From positions 1 through 27,216 of the forward strand of contig CAXTTL010000036.1 of the NCBI GenBank assembly GCA_964247135.1: a DNA stretch of 27,216 nt, in the 5' to 3' direction. Numbering within the stretch: the stretch's first letter is position 1; each line of letters starts with the position of its first letter. Origin of the DNA: an uncultured Deinococcales bacterium. Its GTDB lineage: Bacteria > Deinococcota > Deinococci > Deinococcales > JAAFIG01. The notes beneath the pieces are model-generated. The model was not told the origin of the DNA. It worked only from the letters and a program-made list of their open reading frames with translations, and made no database searches. Positions 1 to 27,216 of the stretch are shown here, piece after piece. A program made the position numbers and the translations under genes.

Positions 1-53
1 GTGCCACCTTGCCAAGGTGGATGTCGAGAGTTCGAATCTCTTCTCCCGCTCCA
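1..53 (+). tRNA. tRNA-Gly (anticodon GCC), 5' end cut off by the window edge
   Basis: Anticodon arm CCACC-TT-GCC-AA-GGTGG, T-arm GAGAG-TTCGAAT-CTCTT, acceptor 3' strand CTCCCGC, discriminator T and encoded CCA at 51-53. Confidence 0.95.
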
Positions 54-73
54 AAGATTGAAGGAAGAAGTGA

Positions 74-102
74 CCCCTCGAGAAATCGGAGGGGATTTTT
101 TT
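74..102 (+). terminator. Intrinsic terminator downstream of tRNA-Gly
   Basis: CCCCTCGA-GAAA-TCGGAGGGG hairpin (one bulge) followed by ATTTTTTT. Confidence 0.8.
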
Positions 103-192
103 ATCTTCGCATGTCTGTGACTTGCTCAGCATTAGGCGGACCATTTGGGTCGAGGATTTGGAATAGAAAGGAGTTCAAACTAACCCCGCACT

Positions 193-555
193 TTATGCCT
201 TGTCGTGAATTGTTATGACATAACCATCGGGGTCTTTGAAACGAAATGTCATCCCAAAAGGACCAACTGTCGGCTCATCAAGGAGGTCAACGTTATGTTC
301 TCGCAGTCTTGCATACAACTCTATGGAATTGTCGCAAAGAAACCAAAGGGCTGCGCCATAACCGAGCGGAGATTGTTCCAAAGGCTGGTGAGGTTTTCTG
401 ACCGCAAATGGAATTGGAGTTGTCAGAAACAAGACACCGTCGGGTGGTGAATTTGGTGCTCGAGGGAGTCCGAGTACCTCGGAATAGAACTTTGCCGACT
501 TTTCAAAATCGGGTACCTGAAGCGCAATAAAGTCTGGACCTTTCACGATTGCCAT
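193..555 (-). CDS. VOC/glyoxalase family protein
   Basis: 120 aa with FYSEVLGL and GPFGMTFRFKDPDGYVITIH motifs typical of VOC proteins. RBS AGGAGG upstream. Confidence 0.9.
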   Translation of the reverse strand: MAIVKGPDFIALQVPDFEKSAKFYSEVLGLPRAPNSPPDGVLFLTTPIPFAVRKPHQPLEQSPLGYGAALWFLCDNSIELYARLREHNVDLLDEPTVGPFGMTFRFKDPDGYVITIHDKA

Positions 556-574
556 AACGACCTCCTGGTGGTAT

Positions 575-616
575 CATATCAGTACGCTGATAGTGTAGTA
601 TCAGCGTACTGATATG
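575..616. promoter_or_regulatory. Probable MarR operator pair between the divergent VOC and marR genes
   Basis: Perfect 18-bp inverted repeat CATATCAGTACGCTGATA-gtgtag-TATCAGCGTACTGATATG. Each arm is itself a TATCAG-N4-CTGATA palindrome. Confidence 0.75.
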
Positions 617-630
617 TCAAGGGGTTGACG

Positions 631-24064: not shown

Positions 24065-24190
24065 CGTGCAGGGATTATACGGTGACGGCTCGAGATTTCA
24101 AAAAAATGTTTTGAGATTTCGCGCCTTGGTACACATTCAAAGAAAATTCTCGAGTACGGTTGAGGCATCTCGGGGGTAAGGAGAAATCTG

Positions 24191-24637
24191 ATGAAACGAC
24201 TGGTTTTGGCAATGTTGGTGCTGCTGACGTTTTCGGTTCAGGCGCAGAATTTCAAAGCTTCAAGCTCGAGTCTCAGTGTTTTACAACAAGCCGCCAACCC
24301 CATGACCGACGCGCAAGTGCTCGAGCGAGGGCGCAAACTGGTGCTGGATTTTTACGCGGTCAAGCTCGAGGGTTTGTTTGAATTGTTCACCCCAGATTTG
24401 CAGGTGCGCACGGGCGGTCTGGAAGCCTTTCGAGCGTACCGTTTAAGGGGCATCGAAGTGTATGGGCAGGAACTCGAGATGCTGGACGAGCAAGTGCTGA
24501 CCCGAGAGAACTTGAAAGGTTATGTCCGCACCGCCGTCTTTGAAAAACGTCCCGATCTGGTCTGGTACGTGATTTGTGCTTTTGACGAAACGGGCGCGGT
24601 GGCGTATTTCAATATCGAATTTGCGGGATCGCGTTAA
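24191..24637 (+). CDS. Hypothetical secreted protein
   Basis: Sec signal MKRLVLAMLVLLTFSVQA, AAGGAG RBS. Confidence 0.8.
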   Translation: MKRLVLAMLVLLTFSVQAQNFKASSSSLSVLQQAANPMTDAQVLERGRKLVLDFYAVKLEGLFELFTPDLQVRTGGLEAFRAYRLRGIEVYGQELEMLDEQVLTRENLKGYVRTAVFEKRPDLVWYVICAFDETGAVAYFNIEFAGSR

Positions 24638-24649
24638 AAAAACGATTTG

Positions 24650-24744
24650 GTAGGGTGCGCTTCTTGACCATAAAACGCACCTAACGGGCATGGTCGCCTC
24701 GCGCACCAAGACATCTGAAACGCGGTGCGCAAGGCGCACCCTAC
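24650..24744. repeat. GTAG-type REP doublet (REPIN-like)
   Basis: Terminal inverted repeat GTAGGGTGCGC...GCGCACCCTAC with internal GGTGCGC-aag-GCGCACC palindrome. Confidence 0.75.
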
Positions 24745-24805
24745 GAGGCGATGATTTGTCATTATGCGGTCATCCACACGCCACCCAAACCCGCTAAGCT
24801 CGAGT

Positions 24806-27202
24806 ATGAAACGCTTCATCTTGCTTGGCGTGATCGTCTCGGGTTTGAGTGGCTGTCAAGGCTCGAGCATCGCAAGCCTTGAGCCAAATACTTTGGTGGT
24901 GGCGACCACGGGTTCGGACAGCAACCCTGGCACGCTCGAGAAACCGTTCAAGACCGTTCAAAAATGTGCGGATGTCGCGTTGCCTGGGTTTACCTGTGCG
25001 ATTCGGGCGGGAACCTACCGCGAGACGGTGCGCCCCGCCAGTTCTGGCTCGAGTGACAAAAGAATTGTCTTTAAGTCTTTCCCTGGCGAGACGGTGCTGA
25101 TTTCGGGGGCGGACGTGGTGGGCAATTGGACGACGTTTCAGGGCAGCATTCAACAAGCCAGCTTGCCCGCAGGCAGCGATTTGGGCAAGGGCAAAAATCA
25201 GGTTTTTGTCGATGGTCGTATGATGCTCGAGGCAAGGTATCCAAACGCGGGTTTGGATTTGCTGCATCCCAAACTGGGCGGTTTTCAGCAGCCCAGCGGT
25301 TCGGGTGTGACCTGGACGATTGCCGCGCCCAACCTGCCCAGCAATTTAACGGGCGCAAACATCAATTTCATTCCAGGTCCAGCCTGGGTGATCGAAACGG
25401 GCAAGATTGACAGCTCGAGTGCCACAGGTTTCACCTTCAGTTCGCCTGGTGGGCAGATGGTGGAACGCCCATCGTTTTACCCAGCCCTGTACGAACCTCG
25501 AGATGGCAACCCTTACTTTATTTGGGGAAAACTCGAGCTGCTCGATAGCCCTGGCGAGTGGTTCGTTCAAAACCAGACTTTGTACCTCGAGCCTTTGACT
25601 GCGGATTTGAAGGCGCATGTGGTCGAATTTAAGCGTCGTTCGTTGGCATTTGACCTCAAAGACCGATCATTTATCACCCTGCAAAATCTGCACGTTTTCG
25701 CCGCCACCATCAGTACGGGCGACCCGCAAAACCCTGGCGCAACCAGCTCGAGCAACATTGTCTTGGATGGTGTTCATGTGCGTTACCCATCGCATTACAC
25801 GTTTGTCACCCCAGGGCAATCTTGGGGGGCTGGACTCGACACGGGCATCATGCTTTTTGGCAGCAACCACACCCTGAAAAACTCGAGCGTCGCGTTCAGC
25901 GCGGGCAACGGTGTGGTGCTTGATGGCAAAAACCACACCCTGACCAATAACGTGATTCACGATGTCGATTACGCCATGACCGATGCGGCGGCGGTGTTTA
26001 CGGGTTTTTATGGGTCTGTCTCGAGTGGACATTTGGTCGAGGGCAACACACTTTACAACGCGGGTCGCAGCGTTTTGGTGCACCGCTCGAGCAGCCTGAA
26101 AATTTTGCACAACCATCTCTACAACGGTGGTTTGCTGACCAACGATTTGGGCTTGACCTACACGTTTCAATCCGACGGGGCTGGCACGGAAATTGCCTAC
26201 AACCTCGTGCATGACAATTTTGCACCCTCGGAGAGCATGGGTATTTACCTGGACAACGGCTCGAGAAACTACCTGGTGCATCACAACATCGTCTGGAATG
26301 TGCGAAATGCCCTGAATCTCAATTTGCCCAGCACCAACAACAAGGTGTACAACAACACCCTGCTCGGCTGGAACGAATCGGTCGGTGGTGGTGCTGCGGT
26401 GGTGACCGATTGCATTGCGACCAACAGCGATGTCAGCAACAATATTTTCAATGCGAATCTCAACCTGGGTGGCGTGTTTGACGGCACGAAATGCCCAGCG
26501 GGACAGGGACTCCCAACCTTCTCGAGCAACCTGACCCAAGACATCAACCCGAAATTCTCGAGCGCCGCGACCAGCGATTTTTCCTTGCAGGCTGGCTCGA
26601 GCGCGATTGATGCGGGCAAAGTGATTGCGGGCATCACGGACGGCTTTGCGGGGGCTGCACCCGATATTGGGGCGCTCGAGCGAGGAACAACGCCGTTTCA
26701 GGCGGGCGCAAGTTTACAAGTGCCGTGCGTTTACGGCGACGATTGCACACCAAAAGTTGAGCGTCAGTACGGCATTTTGGGGCAGTATTTCAGCGACGAA
26801 ACCCTGACCATGCTTGTCACCACGCGCCTCGATCCGCAAATCAATTTTGGTTACTTTGGCGACACCCAATCACCCCCAGGCGTGTTCTTGCCGAGCGGCA
26901 AAAATTACGGCGTGCGCTGGTCTGGAATGCTCGAGGTACCCGAAACCGCCAACTGGACGTTTTACCTGACCGCCGACGACGGGGCGCGATTGTGGGTGAA
27001 CGATCAACCACTCATCAACCGACCCGATTACAAAGACCCACCCGTAGACCAAGCCAGCATTCCATTGCAAGTCGGACAGAAGTACAAGATCAAACTTGAG
27101 TTTCGCCAAGGCAGCAGTGGCGCTCGAGCGCTGCTGGAATGGAGCAACGATGCGGGTTTGGGACGCCAGGTTGTGCCGAGACAGGCGTTCTCGCCAAATT
27201 AA
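24806..27202 (+). CDS. Secreted lipoprotein with a right-handed parallel beta-helix and a C-terminal PA14 domain
   Basis: Lipobox LSGC, GSDSNPGTLEKPFKTVQK/IRAGTYRE N-terminal motif, repeated N-x-I-x-N beta-helix rungs, VRWSG...FYLTADDGARLWVND PA14 motif. Confidence 0.88.
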   Translation: MKRFILLGVIVSGLSGCQGSSIASLEPNTLVVATTGSDSNPGTLEKPFKTVQKCADVALPGFTCAIRAGTYRETVRPASSGSSDKRIVFKSFPGETVLISGADVVGNWTTFQGSIQQASLPAGSDLGKGKNQVFVDGRMMLEARYPNAGLDLLHPKLGGFQQPSGSGVTWTIAAPNLPSNLTGANINFIPGPAWVIETGKIDSSSATGFTFSSPGGQMVERPSFYPALYEPRDGNPYFIWGKLELLDSPGEWFVQNQTLYLEPLTADLKAHVVEFKRRSLAFDLKDRSFITLQNLHVFAATISTGDPQNPGATSSSNIVLDGVHVRYPSHYTFVTPGQSWGAGLDTGIMLFGSNHTLKNSSVAFSAGNGVVLDGKNHTLTNNVIHDVDYAMTDAAAVFTGFYGSVSSGHLVEGNTLYNAGRSVLVHRSSSLKILHNHLYNGGLLTNDLGLTYTFQSDGAGTEIAYNLVHDNFAPSESMGIYLDNGSRNYLVHHNIVWNVRNALNLNLPSTNNKVYNNTLLGWNESVGGGAAVVTDCIATNSDVSNNIFNANLNLGGVFDGTKCPAGQGLPTFSSNLTQDINPKFSSAATSDFSLQAGSSAIDAGKVIAGITDGFAGAAPDIGALERGTTPFQAGASLQVPCVYGDDCTPKVERQYGILGQYFSDETLTMLVTTRLDPQINFGYFGDTQSPPGVFLPSGKNYGVRWSGMLEVPETANWTFYLTADDGARLWVNDQPLINRPDYKDPPVDQASIPLQVGQKYKIKLEFRQGSSGARALLEWSNDAGLGRQVVPRQAFSPN

Positions 27203-27216
27203 ACTTGAGTGTCTTG

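Follow-up and report, generated by a model that had tools for sequence, protein, structure and literature searches.

CTCGAG as a highly iterated palindrome, comparable to cyanobacterial HIP1, in a family of uncultured Deinococcales

Highly iterated palindromes are known from cyanobacteria, where HIP1 (highly iterated palindrome 1) recurs throughout many genomes. Does a word of the same kind exist in another phylum, and if so, what keeps it there? The question is raised by 27,216 nucleotides of DNA from an uncultured Deinococcales bacterium (GenBank assembly GCA_964247135.1, contig CAXTTL010000036.1, positions 1 to 27,216 of the forward strand), a stretch that we call the window and that is dense with the palindrome CTCGAG. 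An earlier reading of the window by itself, here called the original prediction, had put the number of copies by hand at 195 to 200, or roughly one per 140 bp, and had proposed that the lineage runs a HIP1-like system centered on CTCGAG or on the inner tetramer TCGA, with a cognate methylase among the things to look for.

The hand count was right. We counted 197 copies of CTCGAG in the window (7.2 per kb), compared to a mean of 5.22 (standard deviation, 2.10; maximum, 12) in 100 dinucleotide-preserving shuffles, none of which reached 197. The HIP1-like density claimed for the window also holds genome-wide: the host assembly (386 contigs, 5,091,702 bp, 52.7% G+C, 84% complete) contains 33,925 copies, or 6.66 per kb, and counting both strands gives 67,850 occurrences against 2,742 expected, about 25 times what base composition predicts. 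CTCGAG is more than twice as frequent as any other hexamer, and the hexamers ranked next all overlap it. The most frequent hexamer that does not overlap it is GGTTTT (6,081), and the second commonest palindromic hexamer is TTTAAA (3,272). Because none of the 297 contigs of at least 5 kb falls below 2.56 copies per kb (the median is 6.77), neither an artefact of a single contig nor contamination is the source of the excess.

The unit that is iterated is the hexamer itself. The most frequent 12-mer containing CTCGAG occurs only 109 times, and the flanks are weakly biased genome-wide (39% of copies have G at position -1, and 37% have A at position -3). Given so few repeated 12-mers and so little information in the flanks, CTCGAG is scattered as a hexamer and does not belong to any longer repeat. 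The TCGA-centered version of the original prediction found no support in this comparison: TCGA occurs 54,610 times genome-wide, and without the 33,925 CTCGAG copies the count falls to 20,685, near the estimate from base composition of about 19,800, so that the unit is the full hexamer. A maximal-order Markov null, under which 27,444 copies would be expected versus the 33,925 observed, was rejected as a yardstick because its pentamers already contain the signal.

Some stretches of the genome are free of the word. There are 65 gaps of at least 1.1 kb without CTCGAG, and most of the longest ones have 27 to 40% G+C; C13:11893-14536, C70:14168-16418, and C13:4758-6745 are examples among the longest. 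CTCGAG is also sparse at one end of the window (Table 1), within bases 1 to 3000, where G+C content is 45% compared to about 52% elsewhere. The same end contains an open reading frame (ORF) with a PemK/MazF-like toxin domain (PF02452, E 8e-6; window positions 1570 to 1908, forward strand). Judged by their composition, the low-G+C islands among the longest gaps seem to have been acquired recently and would still await conversion.

The force behind the excess acts on the DNA itself, overriding codon choice and sometimes the amino acid. We compared a crude, greedily called set of 4,514 non-overlapping ORFs of at least 100 amino acids, covering 86% of the genome, with the DNA outside it. As had been predicted from the window, the word fills all three frames and occupies genes and intergenic DNA alike. 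ORF copies number 17,385, 4,543, and 6,604 in frames 0, 1, and 2, respectively, with frame 0, which reads Leu-Glu, holding 61%. The enrichment does not vanish between genes; density rises from 6.52 per kb within ORFs to 7.51 per kb in the DNA outside, and spacers of 20 to 400 bp carry 9.15 copies per kb when convergent, 8.8 when tandem, and 7.44 when divergent. Along ORFs, density is flat. Shuffling synonymous codons within genes left 3,958 to 4,087 copies in five replicates compared to 28,532 observed, a sevenfold excess, and shuffling codon order left 1,667 to 1,716 in three replicates. Both nulls are conservative, since the codon usage that they keep has already been shaped by CTCGAG. A dicodon-preserving null, which the original prediction had put forward, would keep the frame 0 copies by construction and is therefore not a fair test; the density in spacers answers the question instead.

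The effect on the proteome is large. Of 22,696 Leu-Glu pairs, 17,385 (76.6%) are written CTCGAG, and Leu-Glu is the most overused dipeptide, with an observed-to-expected ratio of 2.40, compared to 1.02 for Glu-Leu and 1.64 for Ser-Ser. We used alaS, which lies in the window, as a test gene, aligning it across 12 genomes of the family and 11 outgroups, and found amino acid replacement at four positions. At three of them, Leu-Glu is present in 12, 12, and 11 of the 12 family genomes and in none of the 11 outgroups, where its place is taken by Val-x in 9 of 11, Ile-x in 2 of 11, or Lys/Arg/Gln-Glu in 10 of 11; at the fourth, all 12 family genomes have Leu-Glu, compared to Val-Glu in 10 of 11 outgroups. 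The alignment also showed that AlaS varies in length. A form of about 1,000 amino acids is shared by the window's genus and one other genus of the family; elsewhere in the family the length is 868 to 906, and in most outgroups it is about 875 to 900. Most outgroups lack the extra blocks, for example at alignment positions 1246, 1996, and 2483 to 2499.

Near misses to the word are rare, and evenly so. The nine distinct one-letter neighbors of CTCGAG occur 203 to 4,350 times each, compared to 67,850 for the word itself (both strands). Apart from CTAGAG (observed-to-expected ratio, 0.08), which contains the generally avoided CTAG, they are 16 to 50 times rarer than CTCGAG. Relative to base composition, their ratios run from 0.5 to 1.7 at all three half-site positions, with none specially depleted, although the transition neighbors TTCGAG, CCCGAG, and CTTGAG are somewhat commoner than the transversion ones. 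Since no single neighbor has been drained, a drive on one type of mismatch is not seen, and the force sees the whole word.

Copies are also held in place. Five genomes of the same genus, 86 to 88% identical to the window in nucleotide sequence, keep 72 to 78% of its copies (from 36 of 46 to 83 of 108 window copies), whereas they keep 46 to 50% of other hexamers. In alaS, 18 of 21 copies are held in common at 86% identity, 5 to 11 at 64 to 69% identity, and 0 to 4 with outgroups. Among positions scored in at least five of the six genus genomes, 32 copies are present in all, 19 are missing from one genome, and 13 occur in one only (counted by hand from the pattern table); this is a pattern of turnover near equilibrium. 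For copies that are not shared, three or more of the six letters are different in the other genome in 11 of 24, 8 of 21, 7 of 22, 5 of 14, and 4 of 10 cases. This is 32 to 46%, versus 10 to 12% for other non-identical hexamers, in five comparisons that use the same window copies and are hence not independent. Many of the three-letter differences are chains of synonymous steps, as in Ala-Arg-Gly written GCA-AGG-G in one genome and GCT-CGA-G in another; the intermediates CTCGGG and CCCGAG are present in other genomes, and the arginine codon can pass from AGG through CGG to CGA. Events that write several letters of the word at once were considered and are not needed, because three-letter differences with identical flanks show intermediates.

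Spacing is slightly more even than random (coefficient of variation of the gaps, 0.96). Observed-to-expected ratios for gap length are 0.26 at 6 to 12 bp, 0.72 at 12 to 24 bp, 1.22 to 1.26 at 48 to 192 bp, and 0.74 at 384 to 768 bp, and the density of pairs reaches its plateau only at about 80 bp. A distance of 6 between copies is impossible, since it would create GAGCTC. Genome-wide, no period stands out among the gaps beyond that of the codon, and in particular none is seen that would match the helical repeat or nucleosome-like packing. Flank preferences are symmetric in the 4,805 copies that lie outside ORFs: position -3 is A in 43% (background, 26%), position -1 is G in 35%, position +1 is C in 36%, and position +3 is T in 43%. 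This symmetry in spacers fits recognition by a symmetric protein. Taken together, these patterns describe a force that is weak at each site, acts everywhere, and makes and keeps the whole symmetric hexamer.

One use of the word is in transcription terminators. The original prediction had noted CTCGAG in both arms of a terminator following fabF, and this hairpin is real. Its 12-bp stem is followed by a T/U run and folds at -26.5 kcal/mol (z = -6.09), and 200 shuffles produced no fold as good. Over the whole genome, adjacent copies 9 to 40 bp apart make up 5,077 pairs, of which 256 form stems of at least 10 bp, compared to roughly 74 by a rough estimate of chance, and 91 of the 256 have a terminator-like T/A run. 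Such hairpins account for a small share of all copies.

How widely the word is shared was assessed by counting it in 363 genomes of the order (a tally that includes the unpublished genome G324, on which none of the individual statements depends). All 19 genomes of the window's family, which span five genera and are 57 to 94% complete, carry 4.3 to 6.8 copies per kb. At 79 loci around alaS, density was 4.9 to 8.0 per kb in the window's family, 1.0 to 4.6 in Meiothermus and Calidithermus together (1.3 to 4.6 in Meiothermus alone), 0 and 0.5 in two Deinococcus loci, and 0 to 0.74 in 42 loci from other phyla. Across the order, the excess is graded. Meiothermus-like genera (g21, g22, and g24) have 1.4 to 3.5 copies per kb, and several genera of family f2 have 2 to 2.8. 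A Thermus-like genus (g9) has about 0.9, which equals its GAGCTC count and hence represents no excess, and there is none in the Deinococcus-like genus g7 of family f3 either, where the word is depleted and most of the 111 genomes have fewer than 0.2 copies per kb. Family f3 also includes genus g13, whose one genome has 3.6 copies per kb, and genus g17, in which two genomes have 8.6 and 7.0 and the third, G142, has 0.3. The latter is a difference of about 20-fold within one genus (G140 and G141 versus G142), both sampled near 50% G+C. Proteins of G141 are 51 to 59% identical to those of G142 and 30 to 49% identical to those of the window's genome; being closer to G142, the CTCGAG-rich g17 genomes are not misplaced members of the window's family. 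From this distribution, hyper-abundance would either have been gained more than once or be old and have been lost repeatedly. We dropped the comparison of G141 with G142 as a means of telling gain from loss, because their orthologues, at only 41 to 59% protein identity, are too diverged.

The Leu-Glu footprint follows CTCGAG density across lineages. The observed-to-expected ratio of Leu-Glu, with the share of Leu-Glu pairs written CTCGAG in parentheses, is 2.21 in G141 (82%), 2.03 in genome G022 (75%), 1.58 in Meiothermus loci (52%), 1.27 in G142 (11%), 1.13 in Deinococcus loci (6%), and 0.95 in other phyla (6%). The value for G142 does not make it a clear relic. Among sequencing runs, one contained a tenth of the sampled words, and these only within contigs. 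We also scanned viral contigs for three closely placed copies of the word. Among the matches listed, which comprised at least 126 stretches, none was of this family's type, and only high-G+C ones were found. Three of these high-G+C viral or proviral contigs (L195, L180, and L202) have CTCGAG-to-GAGCTC counts of 31:0, 18:1, and 21:2. Such a predominance of CTCGAG is a signature of Meiothermus-like hosts and makes these contigs candidates for a host link.

A methylase specific to CTCGAG would be the expected partner of the word, and cultured relatives do have one. Table S3 of PMC4752239 lists the adenine-methylated motif CTCGm6AG for M.Mhy14884I of Marinithermus hydrothermalis (94.6% of sites), M.Mch9957IV of Meiothermus chliarophilus (94.1%), and M.Mru1279II of Meiothermus ruber (99.5%), and its "cognate RE" cell, for the partner restriction enzyme, is empty for all three. 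The main text of that paper contains the name Meiothermus zero times and does not discuss over-representation of CTCGAG in these organisms. The same table lists CTCGAG methylases of the cytosine (m5C) type, paired with genes for the mismatch endonuclease Vsr, in Nocardia and Rhodopseudomonas (PMC4752239). In the Meiothermus-like genome G187, the sole match to PF07669 is a 662-amino-acid frame whose relatives are annotated "N-6 DNA methylase [Meiothermus sp.]" and carry PF02384, PF07669, and PF22837; the family is of the gamma class. Judged by homology, this is probably the family of the cultured relatives' CTCGm6AG enzymes, and would then include Mrub_2385, MeichDRAFT_0814, and Marky_0034.

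We traced this Meiothermus-type family through the order at E <= 1e-30 and found it in 72 of 363 genomes, 19 of the 26 in g24 and 53 of the 128 in f2. At the same threshold it was absent from all 19 genomes of the window's family, all 125 of f3 (g17 and g13 included), all 23 of f4 (a family that may include a Marinithermus-like genome), all 7 of g21 and g22, and all 32 of g9. Within g24, the 19 genomes with the gene average 2.16 copies of CTCGAG per kb and the 7 without it 2.13 (densities computed by hand from rounded genome sizes). All 10 genomes of genus g50 have the gene, yet their ratio of CTCGAG to GAGCTC is only 1.3 to 1.5. As far as gene content tells, the Meiothermus-type methylase does not track CTCGAG density and is neither necessary nor sufficient for the excess.

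The window's genome has many other methylases, which we took up as candidates: two C5 enzymes, five N6/N4 matches, an HsdM, two MmeI-like proteins, a 1,499-amino-acid methylase-helicase fusion, a D12 methylase, and a 514-amino-acid gamma-class protein with an NPPW motif. Ten further ORFs have the motif (D/N/S)PP(Y/F/W/H), but eight belong to families that have nothing to do with DNA methylation and two match no family, so that none could be recognized as a DNA methylase. The 514-residue protein (G000:C51:9055-10599; L150:4056-5600) adjoins a DinG-like helicase and was found by a weak cross-match, as no Pfam DNA-methylase model recognizes it. Its family is very large and well conserved, with more than 7,950 matches at about 45 to 50% identity across bacteria and archaea, a Heimdallarchaeota protein among them, and the protein itself has a weak match to M.BseCI (E 0.019). 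Of the 19 genomes in the window's family, 8 have the gene intact, 3 retain a short remnant, and 8 lack it; it is present in G141 and absent from G142 and G022. In 48 metagenome loci of at least 5 kb that encode a homologue (600 kb in all), CTCGAG occurs 136 times compared to 176 expected, and GAGCTC 138 times. The 514-residue protein was rejected as the CTCGAG enzyme on these two grounds, its patchy occurrence and the lack of excess around its homologues.

The remaining candidates are no more constant. An 844-amino-acid MmeI-like methylase is found in 3 of 8 other family genomes and the D12 methylase in 7 of 19; beta-class methylases are absent from G011, a family genome assembled as a single contig; and when C5 methylases were compared, the sole pair with at least 45% identity over 200 residues was from G009 and G141, with none among G000, G005, and G011. 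PF07669 matches in five contrast genomes showed no consistent pattern. The CTCGAG-poor G142 has no match to PF07669, PF01555, or PF00145 and only a fragment matching PF02086, whereas its CTCGAG-rich congener G141 has several such genes. Of 15 candidates in the window's genome, none gave a match to Vsr. No match to the XhoI endonuclease family (PF04555) was found in the genome, in a weak search that gave none in control genomes either, and CTCGAG is enriched and not avoided, which does not fit an XhoI/PaeR7I-type system. On gene content, then, no methylase recognized here is necessary for hyper-abundance, and what is left may be a different enzyme in each genome, an enzyme of unrecognized kind, or genes that fall in assembly gaps. 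The part of the original prediction that placed a cognate CTCGAG or TCGA methylase at the core thus finds no support among the families traced, none of which is universal.

The window does encode a restriction-modification system, a complete PvuII-type pair situated between fabF and alaS (Table 1). The original prediction had recognized the methylase, assigned it to CAGCTG, and held that it would not explain CTCGAG, and this assessment stands: the endonuclease lies alongside, CAGCTG occurs only 15 times in the genome, and the methylase is present at 1 of 37 alaS loci from relatives, in a genome of the same genus. Being so patchy, it cannot explain a family-wide word. A second system concerns GAGCTC, which has 0 copies in the 5.09 Mb of the assembly and 3 to 25 in most family genomes. 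The gene for the D12 methylase overlaps by four bases that for a 364-amino-acid SacI-family endonuclease (29.7 bits against a cutoff of 19.3, positions 10 to 274 of 276). This pair has 69 to 84% protein identity with pairs in other family genomes, G141, and seven Deinococcus-like genomes (75 to 84% for D12 alone), and those seven genomes have only 10 to 75 copies of GAGCTC each. As half of a SacI-type system, the D12 methylase was set aside as a candidate CTCGAG enzyme.

Other palindromes are scarce, too. Genome-wide counts are 380 for GGCC, 1 for GGGCCC, 3 for CGGCCG, 4 for AGGCCT, 5 for CGTACG, 7 for GGATCC, 11 for CCGCGG, 17 for GCATGC, 49 for CTGCAG, 121 for GTCGAC, 124 for CCCGGG, and 131 for TTCGAA. 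The near-absent words point to a long history of many restriction systems. As predicted from their genes, ordinary restriction systems explain the avoidance of GAGCTC and CAGCTG, and the enrichment of CTCGAG is a separate matter.

The fabF gene is one of several housekeeping genes of the window in which the word occurs and belongs to a fabG-fabD-fabH-acpP-fabF cluster. Between fabG and fabD, this cluster is interrupted by a 140-amino-acid HNH endonuclease ORF (window positions 6741 to 7163, reverse strand), which matches PF01844 and, weakly, the HNH region of IscB. A 127-amino-acid ORF (7160 to 7543, reverse strand) overlaps it and has no family matches.

Table 1. Coordinates of the features discussed (window positions unless another contig is given)
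Feature	Position	Strand	Basis or remark
CTCGAG copies, dispersed (197)	1..27216	both strands, genes and spacers	coordinate list, shuffles
Word-poor window end	1..1100		2 CTCGAG in 1.1 kb
fabF, housekeeping example with CTCGAG	17915..19171	+	TIGR03150, 570.8 bits
Intrinsic-terminator hairpin after fabF, CTCGAG in both arms (19192, 19211)	19189..19219	+	fold and shuffles
PvuII-family endonuclease	19235..19726	-	PF09225, E 9e-67, positions 1-155 of 155
N6/N4 DNA methylase paired with PvuII endonuclease	20010..21059	+	PF01555, E 5e-43
alaS, test gene, 21 CTCGAG copies	21056..24064	-	TIGR00344
D12 methylase and SacI-family cassette	G000:C320:1061-2985 (L306:407-2331)		PF09566

What, then, would write and keep this word? 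The account that we tentatively prefer, while giving it well under an even chance, is that a symmetric protein recognizes CTCGAG and thereby favors "self" DNA in uptake, in recombination, or in both. The protein, probably a dimer, would read CTCGAG as a unit, and alleles carrying the word would be favored by selection or by biased recombination. Most likely, the word would identify DNA as self when it is taken up, when it recombines with homologous DNA, or in both processes, which would amount to a molecular drive of the kind seen with DNA uptake sequences; methylation in the window's family looks like an optional layer and not the engine. We lean toward such a self word because of the whole-word behavior, the even spacing, the use in terminators, the family-wide sharing, and the lack of a methylase that tracks the word. 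Slightly more doubtful is the fuller statement that CTCGAG is a self word independent of methylation, favored by a symmetric DNA-reading protein in uptake, recombination, or nuclease protection, with a preference that would have been tuned repeatedly in the order, from none through 2 to 3 copies per kb in Meiothermus-like genomes to 5 to 9 in the window's family and part of g17.

Several points weigh against a self word of this kind. A six-letter word gives little specificity per copy. Thermus and Deinococcus, though naturally competent, take up DNA without a known sequence preference, and the Thermus-like and Deinococcus-like genera are without CTCGAG excess. Selection and biased conversion give the same patterns and are not separable by sequence, and the even spacing and deficit of short gaps could stem from deletion between close repeats. 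The ORF set is crude, so that the DNA counted as outside it takes in short genes. While no methylase tracking CTCGAG was found among the families traced, the effect of HIP1 on transformation is described as dependent on methylation (PMC13756078).

The closest competitor puts methylation at the center: an orphan methylase, of an unrecognized kind or differing between genomes, would mark CTCGAG, and a process that reads the marks (strand choice in repair, control of replication or segregation, or protection of self DNA from a defense nuclease) would select for dense marks. We regard this as possible and nearly as likely as the self word, because relatives do methylate CTCGAG, at 94 to 99.5% of sites in three cultured species and with no cognate restriction enzyme listed (PMC4752239). 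Other observations agree with it. The 72 genomes with the Meiothermus-type gene all belong to two families containing genera with the excess; G142, which has no excess, is almost without methylases of the four families searched, while G141 has several; and in cyanobacteria, a HIP-specific methylase is reported to be present where that HIP is frequent (PMC4390886). Set against these are the absence of the Meiothermus-type gene from the densest lineages (0 of 19 in the window's family, 0 of 3 in g17, and 0 of 1 in g13), the equal densities with and without it in g24, its presence throughout g50 at little excess, the patchiness of the 514-residue, MmeI-like, and D12 enzymes in the family, the ordinary CTCGAG content around 514-residue homologues, the absence of beta-class enzymes from G011, and C5 enzymes that are not common to G000, G005, and G011. 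A different role for methylation, resembling very-short-patch mismatch repair, in which a methylation-dependent nuclease converts near-cognate sites to CTCGAG, is very improbable. Elhai advanced a model of this kind for HIP1 (PMC4390886), the methylase-Vsr pairs of Nocardia and Rhodopseudomonas offer a precedent (PMC4752239), and the transition neighbors are somewhat commoner, but no Vsr turned up among the 15 candidates in this 84% complete assembly, the methylation listed for relatives is m6A and not m5C (PMC4752239), no class of neighbor is drained in a position-specific way, and a drive on one mismatch could not hold CTCGAG against loss at its other positions.

Proteins might also bind the word for reasons other than exchange of DNA. 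CTCGAG could be the site of an abundant nucleoid protein or, in a role resembling that of Chi but with a symmetric word, a stop for a nuclease or helicase that spares word-rich DNA. The symmetric extended flanks that persist in spacers, the avoidance of one copy by another out to about 60 to 80 bp, which is the scale of a footprint, the low-G+C islands that lack the word, and the heavy restriction traffic (GAGCTC 0, GGCC 380, and nine other six-letter palindromes at 1 to 49 each) are all compatible with such a site. Given that no candidate protein was found and that helical or nucleosome-like periodicity is lacking, we consider it unlikely, while adding that on sequence alone it is not distinguishable from a word read in uptake. 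The proposal that codon or dipeptide preference, a scattered repeat element, or an assembly artefact produces the excess is already refuted. It can point to the 61% of ORF copies in the Leu-Glu frame and to high-G+C relatives such as the Thermus-like genus, in which both CTCGAG and GAGCTC exceed composition, as CTC and GAG codons predict. It founders on spacers that are denser than ORFs, on the sevenfold excess over synonymous shuffles, on a Glu-Leu dipeptide that is not enriched and a GAGCTC that has 0 copies, on the lack of any longer consensus around the word, and on the recurrence of the excess in 19 independently assembled genomes.

Our literature search found no paper on CTCGAG over-abundance; the papers that it returned for Meiothermus together with CTCGAG were titled on the cloning or characterization of enzymes. 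The observations matter in practice, since drives at the level of DNA, here a 2.4-fold overuse of Leu-Glu and the changes in alaS, can mislead analyses of codon usage, selection, and phylogeny in these genomes. If CTCGAG is indeed a self word independent of methylation, highly iterated palindromes would be a general and tunable mechanism of genome writing and not a cyanobacterial oddity, and the cultured Meiothermus species would make that mechanism testable.

Among known phenomena, restriction-site avoidance likewise concerns short palindromes and is strong in this same genome, where GAGCTC (0 copies) goes with a SacI-type system and CAGCTG (15 copies) with a PvuII-type one, but it has the opposite sign, CTCGAG being enriched about 25-fold. 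The enzymes M.Mru1279II, M.Mch9957IV, and M.Mhy14884I involve the same word in the same order, with no restriction partner listed (PMC4752239), and differ in that their probable gene family is absent from the window's family (0 of 19).

The DNA uptake sequences of Neisseriaceae and the uptake signal sequences of Pasteurellaceae are nonpalindromic words of 9 to 12 letters that occur about once per kb and whose bias in uptake has been shown experimentally. CTCGAG resembles them as a lineage-specific word found genome-wide and in both arms of terminator hairpins, as a source of tolerated peptides in coding frames, and in its rather even spread, all of which a weak drive at each site would explain. 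It differs as a six-letter palindrome with weak symmetric flanks.

The closest known system is HIP1 (GCGATCGC), together with the alternate HIPs. Both HIP1 and CTCGAG are G+C-rich palindromes, over-represented many-fold in genes and spacers; both are shared by whole lineages, conserved in position, and spread slightly evenly; in both, exceptional relatives lack the word, and some members of the wider group are known to have a word-specific methylase. The parallel drawn in the original prediction extends to behavior, since CTCGAG is genome-wide, lineage-wide, held in place, and able to rewrite proteins. HIP1 can reach a density above one copy per gene (Xu et al. 2018, PMC5861425), has been proposed as an uptake sequence in work that profiled protein families against it by phylogenetic least squares (PMC13756078), and is reported to improve transformation (bioRxiv 10.1101/2024.09.10.611283). 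The differences are that CTCGAG has six letters and not eight, belongs to another phylum, and is denser, at 6.7 per kb; that its one-letter deviations are not concentrated at particular positions, whereas those of HIP1 are described as biased to the outer letters (Elhai 2015, PMC4390886); and that its densest lineages are without the only methylase family tied to it, whose presence does not track density. That a methylase tied to the word should be neither necessary nor sufficient bears directly on the leading models of HIP1, a puzzle of three decades that has been studied in one phylum. CTCGAG provides a second case, with a different word, in another phylum, and at higher density, and its range from none to extreme over 363 relatives, its contrast within a single genus, and its cultured members with published methylomes offer comparisons that the cyanobacteria lack.

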